A stretch of 64,000 nucleotides of DNA from Styela clava (lineage: Eukaryota). Where the stretch lies: NCBI RefSeq assembly GCF_964204865.1, contig NC_135251.1:20770001-20834000 (forward strand), in the 5' to 3' direction. The notes beneath the pieces are model-generated. The model had not been told where the DNA came from and did no database searches. It worked only from the letters and a program-made list of their open reading frames with translations. Below, piece by piece: positions 13,929 to 51,567 of this stretch. Both the position numbers and the translations under genes were made by a program. The first letter of the stretch is position 1; the number at the start of each line of letters is the position of its first letter.

Positions 13929-14465
13929 TGCAGAAGTATCGGTACTAAAATATAACTGTGGGTATGATTGGCCGATATAGTACCACATTTCTCTTTCATA
14001 ACTGATGAGCTTGTACCTAAACACAGTAATATCAATACGAAAATCAGTTCCTCAATTTGAACGTACATCAGGACATCGAAGTGCAGGAGTTCTTTTCACT
14101 TCTGTATTGAGATCAAATATATTTAAGACAATAATTGCACATTTTTTAAACCTGTGTCTATGTGTATGTATCTATTTTATGACTTTATGATGTAAGAAAG
14201 AAATATGTTTTTTAATTATAATACCTTAAGAGGCTAGGTTAAATCAATATTTAGAACGTTAATAAAAAGTGTATATTCTTTTACAGTTTTACTGGTTTTG
14301 GGGCAATACTGAATAATATTTTCTTATTTTTCGATAACTATTTTGTATCATTGGCTAAAAGTAAACTAAAGACACCTCATTTAAGTACTGATTTTGGTGA
14401 ATAAAGCAATAGGATAGGAGAAAGAATTTTTGGATCTTATGTAGTTTCGTACCTAACATACTTCT

Positions 14466-14827
14466 AGTAGGCGTAGCATACCAATCTTTTTACGTGTCAA
14501 TCCTGACCCTCACCTGACCACACCATCCAAAAATGAGGTCACTACGACATCACAATGACATAATAGAGCCCTTCAAACTATACGAACTGTCATCTAAGAC
14601 GCGCAGACAAAAACCCGAAATCGAATAGCCATTTCTCTCGTTTCTCGTCGCAACGATCCCGATGTCAGCTCTTTATCGTCGGCGCCGATGCCATTTACTG
14701 GCGATCGGATGAGTATCTTGCAAGCTCTATGACGTGATTGCGACGCCATAGTGACGTAATTTTTAAATGGCGTAGTCAGGTGAGGGTTAGGATTGGCATG
14801 TCAAAAAATTGTTATGCTACGCCTACT
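14466..14827. mobile_element. MITE with ~100-bp imperfect TIRs, about 330 bp upstream of the RIPK1-like ATG
   Basis: agtaggcgtagcata...aatcctgaccctcacctgac versus gtcaggtgagggttaggatt...tatgctacgcctact. Confidence 0.8.
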
Positions 14828-15160
14828 CGAATTTTTATGGATAGGAAAGGAGAAATCTTATAAGATATGGCTTTATTATTCGATGAACATTGGGAAGATA
14901 ATGGATGTGCTGGGCAATCAGGATCGCTTTCAATAATCGTCAAAGTCAAATAATAGTTATTGATTTACCTAAGCTTAAATATTGGAGTTAGGAAAAGGTA
15001 CACAGTGGGTCACTTACTTCTTTTTTCATGCCATGAGTAGTTCACAAACTCTGAATGGATATTCTGTCATAATTCATATAACATTTTTATCCTTTCAATT
15101 CTTGTAATCTAGAGATATGTTATGGTTTTAATAATAAGCTATTAGCACTGGCAAAAAGCA

Positions 15161-16669
15161 ATGGCGCATGGTTCATCAACCCAAGGTTTCCATGAGTTTA
15201 AATACGGGGATTTCACAGACAAAGTTGAAATTGGGGATGGAGATTATGGTGTCGTATATGCAGCTAGGCACCGTATGTTCAATAAAGTTGCTATTAGAAT
15301 CATATCGCGCCAACATCATGTCTCAGAAGGAGAGCGAAATTCTTTAATAACTGAAGCCAAAAAGTTGTCTTCGATTGTATCTGGGAATGTCATTCGTTTA
15401 CTGGGTACAGTTATAGAGCCGGGGCATTTATGTCTCGTGTTTGAATATGCTGAATATGGATCGCTCACTAAACTTTTGCAACGGTATGATATTCCTTGGC
15501 CCTTGAAAACTCGAATATCGCATGAAGTTGCAATGGGAATGTGTTTTCTTCACCAGAAGGACATCTTGCATCTATTGTTAAAGTGTACAAACATACTTGT
15601 CACTGGCAATGTTCAAGTCAAAATAACTGATATAGGTCTCAGTGGAAACATAGAAATGAATAACTGGACAAGATGTGGTAGAATTTATAGCCAAACCTTG
15701 CGATCAACACAAAGAAGATCTGGGGGCAGCTCGATAAGTCATGTACCCCCTGAGCTTATCAGAGATGTAAATGCTGCTGCTGACAAATCCGCCGACGTAT
15801 ATGCATATTCTATCGTCCTGTGGCAGATTCTAACCAATAAGATACCGTATGAAGGTAAAGATACAGGTGCAATTTGTGTTGGTGTTTTGGAGGGCGAAAG
15901 ACCGGATATCTCAATTATAAGTCGTGAACATCCGGAAGTGTTATCTGATGCTATGAAAAAATGTTGGCAGGACGAGAAACAAAACAGACCCACATTTGAG
16001 GATCTTGTTCGTCGAATTGGGCCAGTGTCTGCTAATTGTGAGGATGCTTCAAGAAAGGCTGCCCTCGAGTGTCAAAAAAATGTTCAAGATTTTTATTTTC
16101 CTGACTCGGAAATAGCAGCGCCTACAGGAGATCAGCAGCCTGCAAGGCATCACCATAGGCGATTGGATGCTCCATCTCATATCGGGAGAGCTAATGCAAA
16201 TGATGGCGTTGCTGTACCAATGCAGAGAAACGATGACACAGTTCCTTTCCAGAATTCAGCATCTTCACAGCCAAAGCCTGTTATGGTTTCATTGATTGTT
16301 CCTGTAACCGATCCTCAGATGGAACTCAGTCGCTCAGTGTCGGTACCACCTCCAGATAATAAAGCTCCGCCAATTGCACCAAATCCAACATTATCAGAGG
16401 AAAAATATTCGAAGTTTGTTGGTGTTGATGAACTGTATCTAGTCGCCGAAGAACTTGGCCGTCATTGGCGAAGATTCGGTCTTTACCTAGGATTTAGTGA
16501 TGCCCAACTTGATAATATTGAGGCCAATTTTCACAAGCATGGATTCCCAGAGATTACTTATCAAATGCTAAGAAGATGGAAAGAAAGAAATGGAAATGTT
16601 ACAGTGGGGTTTCTTTTTAACACACTTCGTGATGCTGACTTATTGCATGTTGCACAAAAATTGGCTTAA
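15161..16669 (+). CDS. RIPK1-like protein: N-terminal kinase-fold domain (predicted pseudokinase), Pro/Gln-rich linker, C-terminal death domain; intronless
   Basis: 502-aa ORF. Kinase subdomains GDGDYG, VAIR, HLLLKCTN, DIG, PPE, DVYAYSIVLW, CW..RPTF. C-terminal LGRHWRRFGLYLGF...YQMLRRW closely resembles the RIPK1 death domain (LGKHWK...LGF...YQMLQKW). Orthology is not proven, so no symbol is given. Confidence 0.9.
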   Translation: MAHGSSTQGFHEFKYGDFTDKVEIGDGDYGVVYAARHRMFNKVAIRIISRQHHVSEGERNSLITEAKKLSSIVSGNVIRLLGTVIEPGHLCLVFEYAEYGSLTKLLQRYDIPWPLKTRISHEVAMGMCFLHQKDILHLLLKCTNILVTGNVQVKITDIGLSGNIEMNNWTRCGRIYSQTLRSTQRRSGGSSISHVPPELIRDVNAAADKSADVYAYSIVLWQILTNKIPYEGKDTGAICVGVLEGERPDISIISREHPEVLSDAMKKCWQDEKQNRPTFEDLVRRIGPVSANCEDASRKAALECQKNVQDFYFPDSEIAAPTGDQQPARHHHRRLDAPSHIGRANANDGVAVPMQRNDDTVPFQNSASSQPKPVMVSLIVPVTDPQMELSRSVSVPPPDNKAPPIAPNPTLSEEKYSKFVGVDELYLVAEELGRHWRRFGLYLGFSDAQLDNIEANFHKHGFPEITYQMLRRWKERNGNVTVGFLFNTLRDADLLHVAQKLA

Positions 16670-16725
16670 TCAGTTTGTAAATAAATGTAACTGGGAAGGA
16701 TGGATTAGCACTGATTATATTATGT

Positions 16726-16930
16726 ATATGGTGACCCTTAAAAAAACAGAACCCATAAGTTTGTTGATAACTTCTACAGAATTTGAACAAAACGTCCTAG
16801 ATTCCTGAAATGATTTGGTACAAACCTACACAAACAGAAGTTCAAGTATAAACAAAATCAAATAATTTACTCCATTTTCACAGAGTAATTAGGAAATTTA
16901 TGGATTCTGTTTTTTCAAGTGACCTTGTAC
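16726..16930. mobile_element. Tc1/mariner-type MITE just downstream of the RIPK1-like stop codon
   Basis: ggtgacccttaaaaaaacagaacccataa versus ttatggattctgttttttcaagtgacc. Confidence 0.65.
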
Positions 16931-19900
16931 ATTATGGCATTGCCTCAATAGCATATGCTTTTGTGGTATCAATTAGACTTTTTTGAATATTGAATAGGAA
17001 GCGAACGTTACATTTTTAAAAAATAAATAAATTTTTTATTGATTGATTTGATTAATAATTTTTTTCACGGTAGCAAGTTCACTTTCTCAATAATATTTCT
17101 TCAAGAAAAGTTCCAGAATTTTTTATCCAAATATTTTGTAACCCTTTGTCATTAAATTCTCTGTAATGACATATTTTCTTAAACATATAATGTCTTTGAT
17201 TATTGTATCCACTCGTAATCATGTATACCTTTCTGATTTTATTGTATATTTGATATAATTTTTTTGTTTGTTTTAAATACATTGTTCACTAGTTTTTATG
17301 CAATGTTCACTTAGTAATCTCCTTGATGAAATTTAGTAATTTGAAAGTTATAATTTTTTTTCTAATTATCGAAAATCACTGGCGCTAGTTAATTCTCCCT
17401 CTTTATTCAACTGCTATAATAGTAGATATATTCGTAAGCTTTCAAAGCGATCGAAGTCTAACTACATCGGACAAAACAAGATGTAACTGTGAAGACAGAT
17501 CATAAAAATTCTTAGGACCGAATTTCCATCCTAAACTAGAAAATATGTCTATATTGGTTTATCATTTTTTACGTTAAATGTCCTGCTTTAGGGTATAGTT
17601 CTAAAAATTTTTTCCAATTCATATGACAAGTAGATAGCAGATATCATAAGAATTATTATGTCCCGTCCTTTTTTCATCTGTTATGGAATGAGTATTTTTG
17701 CTCTGCCTGTCTTTTTTGGCTCTGTCAGTGGCTTTGACAAGATGTGTTTTTCAGCAATTCCTAACAAATATATCTATATCTACATAATCCATGCTACTCT
17801 TCTGGTATGTGTTCTTCAGGTACCAGGATGTGTTGATGGGTGTCTGTTTACTTAGAGTAAACTTCCTGTTCCTAACCTATTATCCACCAGATGATGCATT
17901 GTGTTTAAGAATGGCAGGGAGTGTTTGAAATTAAACTTAATGAGTGAATGGTAGCAGTATTGTATATATTTTTTTAAGTCTTATAATTTTGATGTCCTAG
18001 TTATGTTATGAATCTTTTGTAAAAGCGTAAGTCAAAAATCTCCAAATATCCCAGTTTCAATTATGGCCATGGAACAGCTCAAATATTTGGTCACCAATTT
18101 GGTTGGATGTCTCTTGAATTTGTGGGAAATTTTGTTATTAAATTCAAAGTTGCAAGATAAAACCTTTATTGTTAGGTTTATTATGTCTTCAAAATTTTGG
18201 ATTTTGTTGATTTCGGTACTATCATTTATATATTGCAGTATGTCTACTGTGGTGATGTGTCGCAATATGTGATGATGGATCTGGAGATGTGATTTTGTCT
18301 ATGTGTCAATTTCAATATAATACAACTGCAATAACAATATACAAATAAAAAACAGGAACTATAAAAACGGACTAACTTTATAGACATTCTGATAAACCAG
18401 CATGAATAGCCGAGACAACAATAGCCAGATGTTTCTTATCACATAGTTTTCTAGTTTTCAATCCTGAAAATCTTTGTTTTTACAATGATGCTTGTGTGCC
18501 TAAAGTACTTTATAAAGAATATGACTTAATGAAAGCTTACAAATATGCTTGCTATTTTGTGGAGGAATATCATGGTATTCTTCATTCTCCAGGAATGCTA
18601 TTGGGTAAACGTGTAGGCTATATGATTTTCTAAAATTTATGTGGGTGCTACACTGCAACTAGTGTTTTGTTCGCTAACTGTCATATTTTATTGATGAAAT
18701 TTTCATTCAATATTCTGAAACTCATTATTCAACAAATTGCTGCTCAGAAGTAATTCACTTTATTTTGAACCGGTAATTTCTCAGCCTGTGTTTTAGCTGT
18801 GATGTAGGCACATTTATAAATGAATATATATTTCGAATTCCCAAGTATATTCTTTTACAAAGTTTGAACCTGAATTCAATAACTGAAGTTTTGTGCGACT
18901 TTGTGTGTTTTCAAATCTATATTTGTTTCAATTTTTTTTGTCTTCATTTTTCTTGTATATTTGTCACTATCCATATAGTTATTACCTTGACAGATAAGAT
19001 GAAATGAAGTTACTAGGCCTACTACTAATTTGGTTCTACAACACTGGTATAAAAACAGTAGCAAAAATCTTGCTTGTGAATTTGTTGATTTAAATTCAAT
19101 GAATAATAAAGCAAAGTATTAGATTATATATATATTATATATATAACAGCACTGCTTAACAAAGGTATTGTTATAATCTGTTTTATTCATTTGGATTTTG
19201 TGTCACTTATGTATGAACATTTGTTTTTTTTTATCAATAAATGCAAAATTGTTGAAAGCCACTGGTCATACCAACTATTCAATCAGTGTATTTTATTAGT
19301 TTTTCTCTATCATGTGTTTGTAAATGCATATATTTCTGTATACTTATCTACAATCTGATAATATACAAACTTGCAAAAAAGGTGAAATGAAAATCGTTCA
19401 TGTTTTATTCATTTACAATTTTCTTACCTTATGCTGATTTTTGTTTCTCTGTTTCAATTGGATTTTTAATGAAATATTTGTCCAAGGCAAAGTTACAAAA
19501 TCTCAAATAAGACTTTGATCTAGTAGTCTCTACATTTCCTTACATTTTAACTTACTTCCCTATTGTTCTTGGAGAGTCCACAATTTTTTTTTCTCACTAT
19601 TGGAAACAAAATTCAACAATTGATGACCATTATTCATGTGCATGCTATCATTATTTTTGTCATTGTTGAAGTATGCTTGTCTGGAAAAGTATGACTTTGG
19701 TCAGAAGAAACGCTATAGAAATGCATTCGTCGTAGTGCCGCAGGACTCATGGGGTCACCATGAATATTGTCCATAGCTTGTGTTGGTGAATTGGTTCTTC
19801 CATTACTCAGAAAAATGTTGAGACCCTGATTATATGTTCTTACTGAGTTTTGTGTATTCAAATTTTTTTTTTTTCGATTCCCTTATTTTAGAATTCATAC

Positions 19901-41596: not shown

Positions 41597-43200
41597 TTAA
41601 GATAAAATTATCGGTTCGAAGCAGGCGATAGAATTCGTGTATATCTCCAAGGAACCTTTTGTAATCACAATATTGCCATTCTGAACTTCAGTTGCATTGC
41701 TTCAGTTCTTCTTCTAGATTTTTATCTTCTGATGGTGTAGATTTGAAAATATATGAAGTCGTCAACATCATAACTTGTACACTTCCATTTTTCGGTACTA
41801 CTTCTTTAACTTGGCTTGTTATGTGAACCAACAAGATATTTAGCTTTGAGACGTCTGACGACGTCTAAACTTTGATACCATTGCATTGGATTTCTTATTA
41901 CTCCTCTGATAGCGTATACATTGGGAAATAGTTTGTACATGTTGTCTCCTGTCATAACAATTCGTTGGTTTGGTAGCCAAACTGTAACATGATATTCTGT
42001 CTCACCCGGAGTGTGTATAAGTTCTATATCAACACCTATATCGAACACAGAGAAACTTAAAATATAGGGTTTGAAAAGAGTTTCAGGCGTAAAAAATGCT
42101 TTTGACACTTGGTGTAAGGCATAATACAAATAACTTGAAAGCAGAATTTGTTTAGCTGATAAGTTTCTAAATTTTTAATGCAGAAACAGACGTGTCTTAT
42201 TTTTAAAATTCAAGTACCCGAGATTTTGTATGAAGCTCTTCCACTAAAGGTCACTGTCAGTATCGTCCGTGGCAATTTAACTTTTCCTGGACGTCGCCTG
42301 TCTCTAGAAAACGGACAACGATTTCTAGTGTCAGGCACCAAACTGCCTTATAGATCTTGAATGCAATGCAAAACCTAGAATATAAAGAAATAGGCGTTGC
42401 TCAAATTCCTTGATTAGTAACTTGATTGAATAATCATACTCTATTTTTCAAGAATTTTTTTTTGTAAGTTGATGGCTGTAAACATCAATGGTAATGTTAG
42501 GAAAATCTTCCGCTTGCTTTTCAATCACGTGCCTTGCTCCGCCATGGTGGTCTGAATTCAGAATCATAGATTCCTTGTCAATGTCAATAAGAATAATGTT
42601 CTACGCTACGACATTAACTAGCATTGCCATAAAACCGTGCACATTTAATTACGTATCCCTAGTTTTGATCATACCTATGCTATTCGATGTTTCCTCAAAA
42701 TACTTCAATGAAATGTACGATTATACGATTTTTGTAACATACTAATAGTAATATATGGCAACTGGCATCCTGGAATTGACCAGAAGTTTATACGTGCAGC
42801 TGGCGTTGCATGTCCTTCTGCGCCCAATACCGATATAATGTGTGCGCAAAGTCTCTACAATGCAACGTTCTGAATTGTAAATAAGAATATCAGTACAGAA
42901 CTAGAACATAACGCTCACTGAAGTGAAAGGAGTATATTATATAGTTGCTTGTACTGGCTTCCTTGTTATCTTCCGATATTCGCTCATGATTTCTTCCATG
43001 CTTGTTGGGCTTTCCGTTGTATCAACAATAATTCGTCATTTTCTAAAAAAGAGGGGATTACACGCCCGGGCCTTTCGCCCCGAACAAGCAGTCATTGATA
43101 TCGAACAATGTGTAAGAAGCTGCTATTATTTAGAAAGACCGGGATCTTTGCATTTCGGCGTTGCCAATTATCACACCACCGCATAGACATTTCAACCCGC
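41597..43200 (-). pseudogene. Degenerate inverted paralog of the neighbouring alkyl sulfatase
   Basis: Minus-strand remnants of each exon: NVYAV (~43170-43195); IIVDTTESPTSMEEIMSEYRKITRKPVQA then stop (~42930-43035); DHHGGARHVIEKQ...IDVYSH (~42465-42552); HSRSIRQFG with stops (~42215-42380); ELIHTPGET...GDNMYKLFPNVYAIRG...LVGSH then stop (41806-42040). This is joined almost directly to the C-terminal EVQNGNIVITKGSLEIY...CFEP. Confidence 0.88.
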
Positions 43201-44707
43201 TATAGGCATTATTGATTGAAAACACCGTCATAGTGTTTTACCTTAATACGATACAAACATTCATTTTCATTCTAAACCCCGGCTATGATGCTATCTGTCG
43301 ATGAGCTTGAGGCAACTTTGATTGTTAGCTTGAGGAAACAAAGTATCCAACTTCTGTATCAAAGCAAGTGATCTTGACATTACAATCGTTGGTGTGTGTG
43401 TGTGTGAAGACAAGCAAGGCCAGTAAATGATTTATATATTCGGCCGTACATCTTCACGGAAATATCTCGACGGTTAGTTTCATATTATGACCTCAACAAT
43501 TTTTTTATCGTTCCGTTTAGATTTTGAGTTTCTTCGTCAATGGTCCTTTCCATGTTCGAGGTCATGCCTACGATAAAGCGAATAGATTTTTATGCAGTAT
43601 AACTGTTTGAGTATGCCAAAATATTTGCCATGCTCCGGATAGTTATTTCGGAAATAGAAGTAGTAATAAACGCTGAAATAAATTTCGATCAAGAAGGTGC
43701 TTTTGTCATTTCTCACTCACTGTATTATAAGTACTACAATAAATATATTGATTTTGAACAAAGATTTTAATTTCTGATATTGACTTCGAGTTGAATCCCC
43801 AAATTGCCAAAACAACCTTTTCATTCCAACACGATAAAACTTTTCAATAAATGGACATTAAAATGGTGTAATCCATCATTACAGAATAATTTGAAGCAAA
43901 TAATATTGTTCAAATATTTGTTGAAGTGTGAAAAGCATTCCTGTAGAAAGGTTTACAACTCGGCTACTGTTTGAATGCATGCGTGGTACCGGTACCAATT
44001 ATTATCAATAGCCTCGCAAAATGCCGGTCGATATTATTTTTCAAAAAGGTAATTCAAAAATGGGAACGCAATAGCAGGTTGTAAAATTATATGAGCAAAT
44101 GACATTTCACACAATTTGTTGTATCATTTTTTCATCACTCGTAATGTCTGCTATGGCTTCAGTGCTTCAATAGGATTTTCATATTTATCCCGGGGAAAAA
44201 AAGAAAATCGAGTTAGACGGTACGACACCTTCGTAAGTTAAATCGAAAGATGCACGGTGAAAGTAAACGTGCATAAACTTAACTGTGGAACGAGAATATA
44301 TGAGTCGCCTGAATGTTACCGAAACTCTCCAAATGCAAGCTCCAACCTCCTTAATAACTAATCACGTCCCTACAAAATACGTTGTGCTGAAAATGAGCAC
44401 TTAATATTCGCAAAGGGAATCTTATTTGAAGCCCAGCACATGAATAAAGCGGATGGGATGCAATCACAAAAGCCTATCGTGCAAATCGTAAAATGTATTT
44501 AAGAACAGTCGGACCCGCATAATGCGACGTCGATATTACAAAGCGGGAAATTTACTTAACGATTTCATGTGCCCTAGCTCGTAAAAAAGCTTTAGTGTGA
44601 AAAAGTAGTATAAAACCACAGATCTAACGTTTCTGGTCGCTCAATTTTTGCTTCGATGCGCTGCGTACTTTATTCTCATCTGTATAGTTGCAATACAGTA
44701 AAGTAAA

Positions 44708-47700
44708 ATGTCTGACAACTTTGAACACATAAAAGAGCCATTGGCAAAGATAACGGATCAAACATACGGATCCAAGAAGTTGGTCGAGTTCACAAAAAAT
44801 GAATTTTTGCCCAGGCAAGTTTTTAAAGTCGGCGACAATGTATATTCGGCAGTTGGTTGGGCGCTTGCAAACTCGATCATGATCGAAGGTAAGTTCCTAT
44901 ATATTGTTAGTAACATGTCTAAGTATTTATGCTTTAATTTATACATTTCTTAAATTGTGAATATCCGAAATAATCCAGTATGTGATTCAGACTTTGCTGC
45001 AAGTTTAGGTCGATAACTCTTCACGTCACGTTTAGGGGTAATATATAAGAATTTGCAATTACTTTATGTTAATTTATTACAATTCTTTGTGTGGATGCCC
45101 TTTTTAGGAACTATATATCCCAGCGGTTCCCAAACTTTTGTTCGTGCAGCGCCAATTTATCAGAAAAAAAAATTGGGGCGCACCCAAACGAAATAAAAAT
45201 TGCTGCCTTTGAATAAAACTCAATTTTGTGATCGTTGATGTGTACTTTATGCCTTTTAAAGTTTGTAAACATGTATGCCTATAAGGAATAAAGGCAAAGG
45301 GTAAACTCTATTTTCTCATCTCTGCCCAATTTTCTTTTGGATTACTAAAAAATCACTCATGATCGATAAACTCAGTTCAGAAATAAATAAACTGCAGCTC
45401 GCGATTGCAGCAAGTAGTGTCTATCTCCATTGTTACGTAACAATAGATGCAGACCCTACGTAACAGAAAGTAAACGAGATAGGAAGTTAAAATGAATTTA
45501 TTGATTCATATGCACGTTATTTTAAATAGACAACAACGTCATAATAAATATAATATGTAAAATTTTCAATCGTATATTAGTTATGTTTAACACAATTCTG
45601 TTAGGGCGCACTTAGCAAATCACACCCGTTGGGAACGCTGTTATATACCACTATCAGTCCCCACCAATTGACAATGGCTAAGAATTGAAGTTCCATTTGA
45701 AATGTGTTTCGCTAATTATAAGGCGCTATGTTTCGAATTTGTGTTCCAAGTCCATTAGAAAATATGAAGCATTTATCATACATCAAACCACATTTTTCAA
45801 AAACAGGCAAGGATGGTATCATCATAATAGATACGACGGAAAGTATGCAGAGCATGCAAGAAATAATGGTTGAATTTAGAAAAATTACTTCGAAACCTGT
45901 GAAAGCAATCATTTACACTCATTTCCACGGAGGTAGGAAGATTTGCAATTAATGTTATCATGTTATTATTAACTTCAAATCTCAATGTAGCTTTAAAATA
46001 ACCCTACTTCGAAATCAAACATCTGCATTTTAAATTATAGATCATCATATTGGAACACATTATGTTATCGATCGACAGAAAACTGAGTTCCCCGATATTA
46101 ATATTGAAATATATGGACACGAAACAACAGCGGAATTATATTTTGATACAGGTGGGCATCTATAAATATAACTATCTGACATTGTATACTCATTCCTAAC
46201 ATGATAAAATTTTCAATATGATTAAAATCTCTCTTATTGCCTAATGAGTACTCCCGTAGTGTGTGTACCAGGTAAGGGTTAGGCCATAATTTTATTCCGA
46301 TTTTTCTTCTTTTAGTTCTAGTACGAGTTCGGGGACTGTCTGTGTTAGCCAAGTGAATATACCCCCTGCCCATAGGTTTCAGTCCCTTTACACAACCCAA
46401 TCTACAATAGGCGAACAAAATTAGTTACCTCCGTATTGGTTGGTACACACACACTCCTGGAGCGCCACCTCATCTACTTCTACGACTTCAATTTCATCAA
46501 AAAAAAATCATGTATGAATTAATCTTCCAGTGCTGACAAGGGAAATTGGACATGCAAGATCAACAAGACAATTTGCGATATTGCACAACGATGTACCGAA
46601 TACTGGAAAAGGCATTGGGCCTTTTGGATCTCACCATCCACAAGATGGACTTAATATTTACATGCCAACTAGAACGTTTTCTGACAAAGCTAAATACAAT
46701 GTTGCAGGTAGATATGTCTAATAACTCTAATGCATGGTATAAAAACTTTTTTTAGATTTGTCTAAAAACATATATATCTGATATGACACTGGGCTGTAAA
46801 TCGGAAGTTCTGTTCATGGCTTCCATCACTTATTTTTAACCATATTTCATGAGATGCTCCACATATCTGCTCCAGACAAGGCTCTAAGCCAGTTTGGTCA
46901 ACTTTTTCTACGAACTAATATGAATTATGATATTGATCATTTCTGTAATTCCTTTTTTTTCTATCTGACAAGAGTAATGATGTATCAATATATAAGTATT
47001 ATAAATCAAAATCTAATTTCGATTACAACCAGTGGTGGGATTTAGCCGGTTCGCACCGGTTCTATAGAACTGTCTCACGGAATTTTATAAGATCAGCGAA
47101 CCGGTTGGCATTACTGGTTACTGCCAATGACTTTTCGTAACAGAACCGGCTGAAAAATATGACTTTTGTGATCGAACCGGCTGACAAAAAATTTGATTTC
47201 CACCACTGATTACAATACATTGATTAGGTAGGCCGTAGGGTGGTCAACGATGATAGTCGTAAAAGTGCGACTATAAAGAATTGTTTGCGTGTGACTATTT
47301 CGCAAAGGGGACACTCTATAATCTACGAAATGTAAAATATTTCTACTTCCATTATGTCAACGATGCCAATTCACTCATCCCAATATTCATGTCGAAACCC
47401 GTTGGTGTTTAAGCTAACAGCGTACATAATTTATGAATGTAGCTCACGAAAATTGATTAAGCTAAATTTTTTTTACGTGTCAGGCATCGAATTTGAACTC
47501 ATACACACACCTGGAGAAACCCCTGATCAAATCACAGTATGGCTGCCAAAGGAAGAAGTTGCAATGCCGGGTGACAACATTTATAAAACCTTTCCTAATC
47601 TATATGCAATCAGAGGCTCGCCTCCGCGAAATGTGAGAATGTGGTATCAAAGTCTAGACAAAACCAGAGTTCTGAAGGCGAAATATCTTGTGGGATCCCA

Positions 47701-48685
47701 TACCAGACCAGTTATCGGAAAAGATGAAGTTTATGAAACCTTGACGGTGTACAGAGATGCAATAAAATACATTCATGACCAAACATTACGGCTCATCAAC
47801 AAAGGCTATTATCCTGGGCAAATTGTTGCTAATGTCAAACTACCCGACTTAGTCGCTCAACATCCGTTCTTGCAAGAACACTACGGCACTGTCGCATGGT
47901 CCGTGAAAAGCGTTTTCAATGATTACCTTGGGTGGTTCAGTGGAAATCCGCAAGATTTGCACCCGATGACTGAAAATGAGCGTGCTACACGGATGGCTAG
48001 GTTAATAACGTATGCTCAAAGTCAACAAATCTGCGCGGCGGAAGTAATGCTACGTGAAGCTGAAATATCTCACAAAAAATCGTATGAGCATTATTTGTCA
48101 AAGGGGAAGTATCTTGTGACTGAAGACAAATGGGCTTTGGAACTAGTTGATACCGTACTTCAGCTCGGTAGCTTAGAAGAAGCTCTCAGCAACACAGCTC
48201 GACAAGTGAAAATAAGTGCACTTAGAGCACTAGGCGTTGAAGAAATAAGCGCAAATGGCAGAAATTATTACTTGACCTGTGCATTGGAATTAGAATCGAA
48301 CATTTCGCTGGATCAAACGAAAAAGGCCATCTCCATAACAATAAAAAGGACCCCCATTGAGAAAGTCCTTGAAATGTTAAGTCTCAAAGTAAAAGGTTTG
48401 GAATGTCAGCATCAAAAATATACGATTGGTCTCACATTTTTAGATCTGGATAAAGATTTCATATTGACCCTACGGAATAGTGTATGTGACGTCATTGAAG
48501 CAGGTACGGAAGATGAAAATCCACAAGTCCGGCTGACAATGAGGTCTGATGTGTACAAATCAATAATGAATGAAAACAAAAATTGGGAGGAAGAAGTCAA
48601 GGCTGGAAACGTTACAGTGGCGAGCGGAGCATTGGAAACCTACATGAAATTTTTAAAATGCTTCGACCCCCTCAACTATGATTGA
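44708..48685 (+). CDS. Alkyl/aryl sulfatase of the SdsA1/BDS1 family (metallo-beta-lactamase fold, dimerisation domain, SCP2-like C-terminus)
   Basis: Exons 44708-44888, 45807-45932, 46041-46151, 46531-46707, 47484-48685. The HFHG|DH (HxHxDH) zinc motif is split by intron 2. Other motifs: IDTTES, HTPGETPD, GDN, NLYAIRG, VGSH, HDQTLRLINKG, EHYG, YLGWF, NGRNYYL. Confidence 0.92.
45121..45640. mobile_element. hAT-Charlie MITE in sulfatase intron 1
   Basis: cagcggttcccaa ... ttgggaacgctg. Confidence 0.7.
47030..47208. mobile_element. hAT MITE in sulfatase intron 4
   Basis: cagtggtggga ... ttccaccactg; 8-bp TSD attacaac/attacaat; internal (A)ACCGG repeats. Confidence 0.85.
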
Positions 48686-50400: not shown

Positions 50401-51126
50401 TTATTTGCATGTTATTAGGAAAACTCTTTCAAGTCCCCACTCGGAATCCTCTTCGTCCACTTTATCCCAAGTAAAATATTCGCCGAAAAGTTCGGTCATG
50501 TCCGCATCCGTAATATCGAATGGGTTATTGATCCAAGTTCTCTTTTCGCCAAAATACATTGCACTCAGCATGTATTTTGCTTGTTTGTCTAAGACTGACC
50601 GCATAATTTCGACGTATGGTTTTCTTGAGGCAAGCTCAATTGTATTCAAGCTTGCCGAATCCCACACCGCGTCGAACAGTCCACCAGCGATATCCGAATT
50701 GAATTTAAAATAATCTCCTTCATATATAACTACATTCGCAGTTTTTCCGGTATACACTCGAAAACTGTGATCTTTTGTTGAAACCGATTTTTCGAATTCC
50801 ACTGAATTTTCCTCAAAAAATTCCAAAATGGCGTGTTCAGAACATTCTAATCCAACCACTTCGTACCCTTCGTCAATCAACCACTTTATATCTGGTGACT
50901 TTCCGCACAATGGAAGAAATATTCTCTTTCGAATGGCGTTTGGTAAAAGAGATTTGATGTGCTTTCTAAGCATTGGGCTGGCCTGATCAAATGGATTGTC
51001 TTCGTCGCCATGTTCGCAAATATCACCGCCTTTGCTACCTTTACTTTTAGAACGTTCGTAATCCTTTTTCCACCATTCATTCCACTGATCTATGGTTAAC
51101 AACTTGTGATCTTCCGATTCTGCCAT
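50401..51126 (-). CDS. TPMT: Thiopurine S-methyltransferase family protein, intronless CDS
   Basis: Motifs RIFLPLCGKSPDIKWL, GYEVVGLECSE, GDYF, FDAVWD. The likely start is MAESEDHKLL (51126), matching TPMT length; the ORF is open to 51252. Confidence 0.87.
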   Translation of the reverse strand: MAESEDHKLLTIDQWNEWWKKDYERSKSKGSKGGDICEHGDEDNPFDQASPMLRKHIKSLLPNAIRKRIFLPLCGKSPDIKWLIDEGYEVVGLECSEHAILEFFEENSVEFEKSVSTKDHSFRVYTGKTANVVIYEGDYFKFNSDIAGGLFDAVWDSASLNTIELASRKPYVEIMRSVLDKQAKYMLSAMYFGEKRTWINNPFDITDADMTELFGEYFTWDKVDEEDSEWGLERVFLITCK

Positions 51127-51567
51127 TCCTGCTGTTTGTAACAAACGGTATATATTATGAAACAACGCTTGAATACGGATACGGGCATACGAATCGCTGG
51201 TCAAAATATAGTCACTTTGGTCAAAACATAGTTTGCTGATCGAATCTTCCATTGATTACTAGGCGCTGTTCCTCTGTAAAGTCATGTTAAATATATCTGT
51301 ATAAAATATGTAGGAAAATGATTGTTTAAGTTAATGTATATATTTAAAACATGTGGTCCACAAGTGATAAACTTCTCATAGAAAACTAGGTCGAAAAGGA
51401 GTTGGAAATTTGATCTGAGAATTTACATTGGGAACACATTTCTTCGCATGACGGCGTAGCGCTCGAGTGAACGCAAGCCGGCTATTAGGTTTCTGAACCC
51501 GCATCACATCACGTATTGCTCCAGGCGTGCACCGCAGTTTTAGCGTTTGCAAATTTGCACATTCAAT
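51127..51567. promoter_or_regulatory. Probable bidirectional promoter region shared by TPMT-like and POLB
   Basis: Divergent start codons about 440 bp apart, with a CpG-containing patch at ~51445-51550. Confidence 0.55.

Follow-up and report, generated by a model that had tools for sequence, protein, structure and literature searches.

The 64,000-nt stretch of Styela clava DNA analysed here (the window) carries, at 15161..16669 (+), a single-exon coding sequence that translates without a break into 502 amino acids and a stop codon, in agreement with the uninterrupted 502-codon frame claimed in a first-pass annotation made from the letters alone. On the 502-aa protein Pfam places a kinase domain at residues 22-285 and a Death domain at 424-501, and translation, Pfam, PDB matches and RefSeq together describe a RIPK1-like pseudokinase followed by a linker and a death domain. 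XP_039260181.1, annotated 'RIPK1-like [Styela clava]', belongs to the same 90% cluster as the protein and is identical to it at 494/502 residues; this is the same gene, and its automatic name is silent on the loss of catalysis. A look-up in a protein atlas ranked RIPK1 clusters first.

The coding exon likely starts at a splice-acceptor-like TAG that follows a pyrimidine tract at 15110..15112 (+), 48 nt upstream of the ATG, since contigs from two studies start at this motif (X11 at 15111 and X14 at 15110). The interval 14855-15076 lacks cover in X5, X9 and X11, and 15111-17600 is covered by contigs of three runs, each belonging to a different study. The stretch at 16670..17600 (+) is continuous with the coding sequence in probable RNA contigs (X11 record 7 spans 15111-17600) and is likely 3' UTR, the end of which was not found after 16669 in these contigs, the X11 record reaching 17600. 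That nine of the runs are RNA is a guess, and the contig cover of the gene is a weak hint of expression. Single-exon genes are common in the Styela genome, for example those of ZAK-, Tec- and Syk-like kinases and ALDH.

A high-copy MITE-like element with 125-nt inverted arms lies at 14435-14850, 300 nt upstream of the gene. The neighbours in the window (SIN1, GH31, alkyl sulfatases, TPMT and ALDH) are unrelated to it; they include, at 41806-48685, a tandem pair of alkyl-sulfatase-like genes with a metallo-beta-lactamase fold. TPMT (50401-51255) lies 34 kb from the RIPK1-like gene, and in human TPMT and RIPK1 are both on 6p, which could be chance.

A kinase domain without its catalytic residues

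The kinase domain comprises residues 13-290 (15197..16030, +) and is predicted from Pfam, a structural model and Foldseek to keep an intact kinase fold. Its best PDB match is human RIPK1 (E 5e-44), followed by RIPK4 (4e-41) and by RIPK3 and RIPK2 (6e-29). Alignment to human RIPK1 bears out the two substitutions on which the first-pass annotation was built: the beta-3 (VAIK) Lys, human K45, is replaced by R46 (15296..15298, +; codon AGA) in a VAIR motif encoded by GTT GCT ATT AGA at 15287-15298, and the catalytic Asp, human D138, by L139 (15575..15577, +) in the HLLLK of the catalytic loop H137-L138-L139-L140-K141-C-T-N144 at 15569-15592. The D-x-G motif said to be retained is seen as D157-I-G159, from which a lengthened activation segment runs to W169-T170, at the position of human W165-S166 (15629..15670, +); S166 is an autophosphorylation site of human RIPK1 (excerpt of PMC11275223). 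The Gly loop, likewise described as retained, keeps its three glycines, but as GDGDYG (15233..15250, +) it has Asp at residues 26 and 28, the positions of human S25 and G27 respectively; S25D blocks RIPK1-dependent death in mice (excerpt of PMC11275223). As for the remaining subdomains, 31 of the 34 positions with a conservation of 90% or more among 26 active RIPK-like kinases are present, the exceptions being 46, 139 and 191, and the retained residues include the alphaC Glu, the catalytic-loop His, Lys and Asn, and the DFG Asp. An earlier model from a 4-sequence alignment had a poor C-lobe (pLDDT 56); a model from a 55-row alignment gives a complete kinase fold (pLDDT 88.7, pTM 0.88), with the human RIPK1 kinase as its top Foldseek matches, but it inherits its shape from mostly active kinases and thus indicates foldability rather than the state of the pocket. 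With two of the three diagnostic residues (VAIK Lys, HRD Asp, DFG Asp) lost and the fold kept, the protein is a pseudokinase by sequence definition.

Three relatives with the same architecture, P0002, P0005 and P0031, were found among the best 150 matches of a search of 1.84 billion representatives, with kinase identities to the window protein of 43%, 46% and 32%. The four form one clade (support 100/99) in trees from which the catalytic columns had been removed; these had 38 rows, or 31 when seven redundant rows were left out and death domains were added. The position of the catalytic Asp is occupied by L, R, R and R in the clade and by D in 26/26 active relatives, and that of the beta-3 Lys by R, R, R and K (Arg in 3/4), against K in 26/26; P0031 further lacks the catalytic-loop Asn and the DFG Asp. 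The tip of the Gly loop (position 28) is charged in 4/4 clade members (D, E, R, E) and in 0/26 active kinases. Of the 34 conserved kinase positions the four retain 31, 30, 31 and 27; surface residues such as F18, S49 and I228 are invariant in the clade, and the position of human S166 holds Ser or Thr in 4/4. From their place in the clade, P0002, P0005 and P0031 would be tunicate proteins; word-index searches, which are insensitive (two gave 3 hits each, one of these missing 2/4 of its own inputs, and a third gave the query alone), returned no named tunicate ortholog besides that of Styela clava. On this comparison of sequences the loss of catalysis is old and not a young accident.

Residual or atypical kinase activity, for which the alphaC Glu, the catalytic-loop His, Lys and Asn and the DFG Asp of the window protein might be cited, is very improbable given that the catalytic Asp is absent in 4/4 clade members, usually in favour of Arg, that the beta-3 Lys has become Arg, that the Gly-loop tip is charged, and that P0031 lacks the Asn and the DFG Asp as well.

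The first-pass annotation had named assembly error and young pseudogene among the conditions under which its reading would fall. The RefSeq allele XP_039260181.1 carries R46 and HLLLK likewise, and neither the X9 contigs (15228-15980; 6/6 differences listed) nor the X7 contigs (15257-15980; 2/2 listed) differ at the R46 or L139 codon. X5 and X11 also cover these codons, with 75 rows of their differences lying outside the comparison; no cover was found in the X18 raw DNA reads or in X13. Assembly error is ruled out by the RefSeq allele and these two independent contig sets, and a young pseudogene by intact distant relatives with the same losses, conserved in a clade of four with kinase identities of 32-46%. 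Among the allelic differences listed in the kinase domain, at least 10 are non-synonymous and at least 3 synonymous, small numbers which fit neutrality and reject an omega of 0.2 or less at p<0.01; none of the 11 variable amino-acid sites, again small numbers from the listed differences, falls within the 73 conserved of 278 positions (Fisher p 0.038). For dN/dS, X14 and X15 yielded only short near-identical pieces and no close sister species. A decaying retrocopy, or an error after all, would suit the single-exon coding sequence and the near-neutral allelic ratio; against it stand the many ordinary single-exon genes of this genome, the agreement of a second assembly and the contigs, the avoidance of conserved positions by variable sites, and the intact distant relatives. 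This explanation is already largely refuted by the sequence comparisons, and we consider it scarcely credible.

Descent of the clade

Trees place the clade within a 22-row group of RIPK1-type and RIPK2/3-type proteins (support 91/91 and 95), within which its further placement is not resolved. When the clade is joined exclusively to vertebrate RIPK1, p-AU is 0.033 (LG+G4) and 0.35 (mixture model); it is 0.38 when all RIPK1-type rows are included, 0.48 and 0.69 for a union with the RIPK2/3 type (not rejected), and 0.30 and 0.24 for one with the other RIPK-like kinases of the genome. At 10 type-separating columns (40 cells) the clade shows the RIPK2/3-type residue in 16 cells and the RIPK1-type residue in 8.

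Insertions and motifs point the other way. Among 58 rows, the spacing from Asp to Trp in the activation segment is 9, with W-S, in 11/11 vertebrate-type RIPK1 rows; it is 11-12, with W-S/T, in 5/5 clade rows, and 6, with W-K/R/C/H, in 32 other rows, Trp being absent in 10. Vertebrate RIPK1 and the clade share an alphaE-to-His spacing of 7, against at least 8 in the other scored RIPK-like rows, although two outgroup kinases have 7 as well. These indel and motif characters favour descent from RIPK1, while the trees cannot separate RIPK1 from the RIPK2/3 type; on balance of the sequence characters the clade probably descends from RIPK1.

It has also to be considered that the clade might derive from a RIPK2/3-type gene combining kinase and death domain, such as those of amphioxus, Lingula and sharks, RIPK1 proper having been lost in tunicates. 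Joined with the 7 RIPK2/3-type rows, the clade has a log-likelihood 0.6 lower (LG+G4) or 2.9 higher (mixture) than the free tree, and two shark proteins, P0054 and P0117, resemble RIPK2, carry a death domain and give no RHIM match. Such an origin, which we hold possible but doubtful, is opposed by the activation-segment insertion and W-S/T of the vertebrate-RIPK1 kind, which gap-blind trees ignore, by the short alphaE-to-His spacing and the non-Phe residue in the middle of DFG, also vertebrate-RIPK1-like, by the RIPK2/3-type rows forming a clade of their own that excludes the four in all three free trees, and by RIPK1 being the best match of both domains. The biology would be the same, and the question bears on the name and not on the mechanism. 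What stands of the 'RIPK1-like' assignment is that kinase and death domain both match human RIPK1 first, with a RIPK1-type signal in motifs; orthology as against the RIPK2/3 type is left unsettled by the trees. P0054 and P0117, from shark and chimaera, end in a death domain instead of a CARD.

Measured against RIPK1 as defined by an N-terminal RIP-type kinase, a RHIM and a C-terminal death domain (excerpt of PMC12119088), the window protein has the kinase and a death domain closest to that of RIPK1, and lacks the RHIM tetrad as well as Lys45/Asp138 and Arg603. Being without RHIM and catalysis it fails the strict definition, and it is therefore filed as a RIPK1-derived pseudokinase and not as RIPK1. 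It shares with vertebrate RIPK1 (PDB 4NEU for the kinase, 6AC5 for the death domain) the order of kinase, linker and death domain, the best match of both domains, and the activation-segment insertion with W-S/T; it differs in lacking K45, D138, the RHIM and R603, in having Arg at K599, in being about 170 aa shorter and in having a single coding exon. Amphioxus RIPK1 and RIPK1b and the RIPK1-like proteins of a hemichordate, Lingula and Owenia also combine kinase and death domain and belong to the same 22-row group of the tree, but unlike the window protein they keep the Lys, the Asp, Arg603 and mostly the RHIM.

The linker and the death domain

The linker (residues 291-420; 16031..16420, +) is poorly conserved, with 17-22% identity within the clade, contains 4 Lys and has no RHIM. 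A RHIM profile built from 23 relatives, which scores molluscan proteins outside the training set at 15 bits, gave no match in any of the four clade members (4/4), and neither a Pfam RHIM nor the tetrad was found in them; a genome-wide RHIM scan was silent everywhere, controls included, and carries no weight. Each clade member has 3-4 linker Lys, none clearly conserved. Candidate counterparts of the caspase-8 site (D324) are Asp residues at 336/344/338/329, and there are candidate Lys for the ubiquitin site (K377), the alignment being unsure in this region. Linker residues 373-389 (16277-16327) differ in a second allele seen in X9 and X11, with about 12 differences packed closely together.

The death domain (residues 421-502; 16421..16666, +) is recognised by Pfam Death (E 9e-14), and its best PDB match is RIPK1 (E 6e-11), with FADD at 3e-6; identities within the clade are 34-54%. 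It had been described as well-formed, which applies to the core: L443, Y467, M469, L470, W473, L485 and L489 are retained in 4/4. Its surface, on the other hand, has lost a conserved Arg, human R603, in place of which stands L441 (16481..16483, +), as seen in the clade comparison, the equivalence being fixed by a peptide in the excerpt of PMC8238200 together with the alignment to PDB 6AC5. This position reads L, H, K and E in the clade and Arg in 20/22 active relatives, and a second conserved surface residue, at the D456 position (20/22 active relatives), is lost in 4/4 clade members. R603 (mouse R588) mediates FADD binding, and R588E in mouse abolishes binding to FADD and lowers that to TNFR1 (excerpt of PMC11256114). 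At the position of human K599 the protein has R437 (16469..16471, +), Arg in 4/4 of the clade; K599R/K584R blocks homodimers of the death domain (excerpt of PMC5900707), but this Arg weighs less because 6/22 active relatives also have it.

The clade-wide loss of the RHIM and of death-domain Arg603, as read from the alignments, is new beyond the first-pass annotation. With the RHIM gone and Arg603 replaced throughout the clade, the co-immunoprecipitation with FADD/TRADD homologues proposed there may well be negative. The mouse alleles Ripk1 K45A, D138N, K584R and R588E hit the same positions, which in Styela are altered naturally, in combination and of old. Mouse R588E is embryonic-lethal through RIPK3/ZBP1, acting by RHIMs, and the window protein has no RHIM.

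Candidate partners in the genome and possible function

A search for an active RIPK1-like paralog, as the first-pass annotation had advised, was carried out with four active RIPK queries (fish-type P0003, amphioxus P0020 and P0014, vertebrate-type P0055), with 61-78 candidates scored for each, exon by exon. The window gene was the top match every time, and no active paralog combining kinase and death domain was seen by the four queries, by a Death-family scan or in 128 flanking frames searched exon-wise. The Death-family scan, in which 12/51 candidates matched, mostly death-domain caspases, missed the intron-split death domain of a FADD-like gene, so that the genome search is incomplete and a paralog may be hidden. 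Within this search the window gene is likely to be the only RIPK1 counterpart of Styela.

Six RIPK-like kinases have an intact HxD and no detected death domain. L003 (G000 C10:21.45 Mb) joins such a kinase to five Mind-bomb SH3 repeats, L006 (G000 C2:19.69 Mb) is its kinase-only sister, and L045-L047 and L050 (G000 C13:15.04-15.07 Mb, C1:7.93 Mb) are multi-exon genes with HLDLKSDN that form their own clade. These four, which came out of an inspection of 18 further kinase matches by motif, each lie near Sushi-domain exons and may be receptor-type or co-duplicated; neither Death nor CARD was found near them in 128 flanking frames of at least 62 aa, and their beta-3 exon was not located. The remaining inspected matches presumably belong to other kinase families, to judge by their motifs. 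The genome also has FADD-like, caspase-8-like, MLKL and TNFR-like genes; the FADD-like gene (L070/L089; G000 C4:6.114 Mb) retains its own death-domain Arg, and no TNF-receptor death domain was seen in the flanks examined.

IRAK-M/IRAK3 pairs a death domain with a pseudokinase in innate immunity and acts beside active IRAK paralogs. The window protein had been likened to it as a scaffold-only or decoy regulator. The scaffold part of this proposal is plausible from the sequence; the analogy with IRAK-M is not supported, because it needs an active paralog to damp and none with kinase and death domain was found in the incomplete search. Moreover, IRAK-M has the opposite domain order and belongs to a different family.

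The reading preferred here, to which we give an even chance, is that of a RIPK1-family protein devoid of the ATP-anchoring Lys, the catalytic Asp, the RHIM and the FADD-binding Arg, likely the sole counterpart of RIPK1 in Styela, acting as a non-catalytic scaffold. Its death domain, the surface of which has been remodelled, would bind a death-fold partner that evolved along with it, and the kinase fold together with the lysines of the linker would form a platform for ubiquitin and for kinase-independent signalling to NF-kB and survival, the one job of mammalian RIPK1 that would need neither catalysis nor RHIM; the protein would be unable to start RIPK1-kinase-dependent apoptosis or RHIM-dependent necroptosis. 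K45A and D138N mice develop normally, and the Ripk1 null dies after birth (excerpt of PMC5900707); NF-kB activation depends on ubiquitination and not on RIPK1 kinase activity (excerpt of PMC13079931). It follows that a lineage without RHIM necroptosis could drop catalysis and keep the scaffold. A scaffold agrees with the clade-wide loss of catalysis while 27-31 of the 34 conserved kinase positions are retained, with both domains being far better conserved than the linker (32-46% and 34-54% against 17-22%), and with the presence of FADD-like, caspase-8-like, MLKL and TNFR-like genes in the genome and of probable RNA contigs from three studies. Arguing against it, the loss of Arg603 speaks against ordinary docking on FADD or TNFR1 (given the role described in the excerpt of PMC11256114), the C-termini of non-mammalian RIPK1 required the RHIM for NF-kB in human cells (excerpt of PMC12119088), the allelic ratio is near neutral, the trees do not group the clade with vertebrate RIPK1, and no linker Lys is conserved.

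The altered death-domain surface may instead suggest an inhibitory decoy or cap, which leads back to the IRAK-M idea along another path: the death domain, dead on one face, would join FADD, caspase or receptor death-fold assemblies, halt their growth and damp the pathway. The loss of Arg603 and of the D456-position residue in 4/4 with the hydrophobic core retained, the abolished FADD and lowered TNFR1 binding of mouse R588E (excerpt of PMC11256114), and the many death-domain caspases that would need restraint all fit such a role; yet no active kinase and death-domain paralog to compete with was found by the four protein queries, and a complete kinase fold, retained across such divergence, is more than a decoy would require. 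We regard it as rather unlikely.

Less likely again would be a pseudokinase that is itself the working part, binding and tuning an active RIPK-like kinase, as KSR does for RAF, or holding MLKL, while its death domain serves for localisation. In favour of this are the six catalytically intact RIPK-like kinases without detected death domain, MLKL, the clade-invariant kinase-surface residues F18, S49 and I228 and the Ser/Thr at the S166 position in 4/4; the basic residue of the alphaC-beta4 loop that is used in RAF/RIPK2-type dimers is absent in 4/4, a point read from the sequence. In a broader formulation, it is tentatively conceivable that in tunicates, the invertebrates nearest to vertebrates, RIPK1 shed all that it is known for (catalysis, RHIM and FADD face), and that fold and core were kept through rewiring to a different partner, such as the expanded death-domain caspases, an active RIPK-like kinase or MLKL; if so, the RIPK1 kinase fold would prove to have a role, hitherto unrecognised, that is independent of catalysis.

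Pseudokinases with death domains are already known, as is natural catalytic loss in a RIP kinase: feline RIPK3 has a mutated catalytic residue (excerpt of PMC12119088), but that loss is recent and concerns RIPK3, which keeps its RHIM and has no death domain. The same excerpt describes tunicates as lacking RIPK1 under the definition of kinase, RHIM and death domain; for Ciona only RIPK2 is listed, and earlier urochordate RIPK1 candidates are cited as being without a death domain (excerpt of PMC11507063). Styela and Ciona MLKL have been tested, with no upstream kinase named in the excerpt of PMC11476962. The present gene fills a gap here, since the 2025 survey saw no tunicate RIPK1 because a RHIM was required, and tunicate MLKL lacks a known upstream activator. 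The literature searched, with subscription papers outside its scope, held no account of a kinase-dead tunicate RIPK1. A 2016 review of necroptosis evolution, a 2019 pseudokinase census and a 2003 list of Ciona cell-death genes may already include the gene. Separating the scaffold from the kinase role of RIPK1 is a standing question, approached hitherto through engineered mice and inhibitors; a long-kept RIPK1-type protein that is kinase-dead, RHIM-less and Arg603-less is a natural compound mutant that points to the function remaining, and the sea squirt gene allows one to ask, in a natural setting, what RIPK1 still does once its enzyme activity is gone.

Several further features were observed during the genome search. 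Single-exon caspases with a death-domain prodomain, five of them confirmed by Pfam, are clustered at G000 C6:18.78-18.85 Mb (L033-L038), with C17:3.04 Mb (L043), and the cluster adjoins an adaptor-like ORF with CARD and Death, possibly forming a lineage-specific death-fold pathway with candidate partners. The FADD-like gene has an unusually long, repetitive linker between its DED and the intron-split death domain. L021 and L022 (G000 C13:10.39 Mb) are tandem single-exon genes, which we take from their motifs to be JAK-like.
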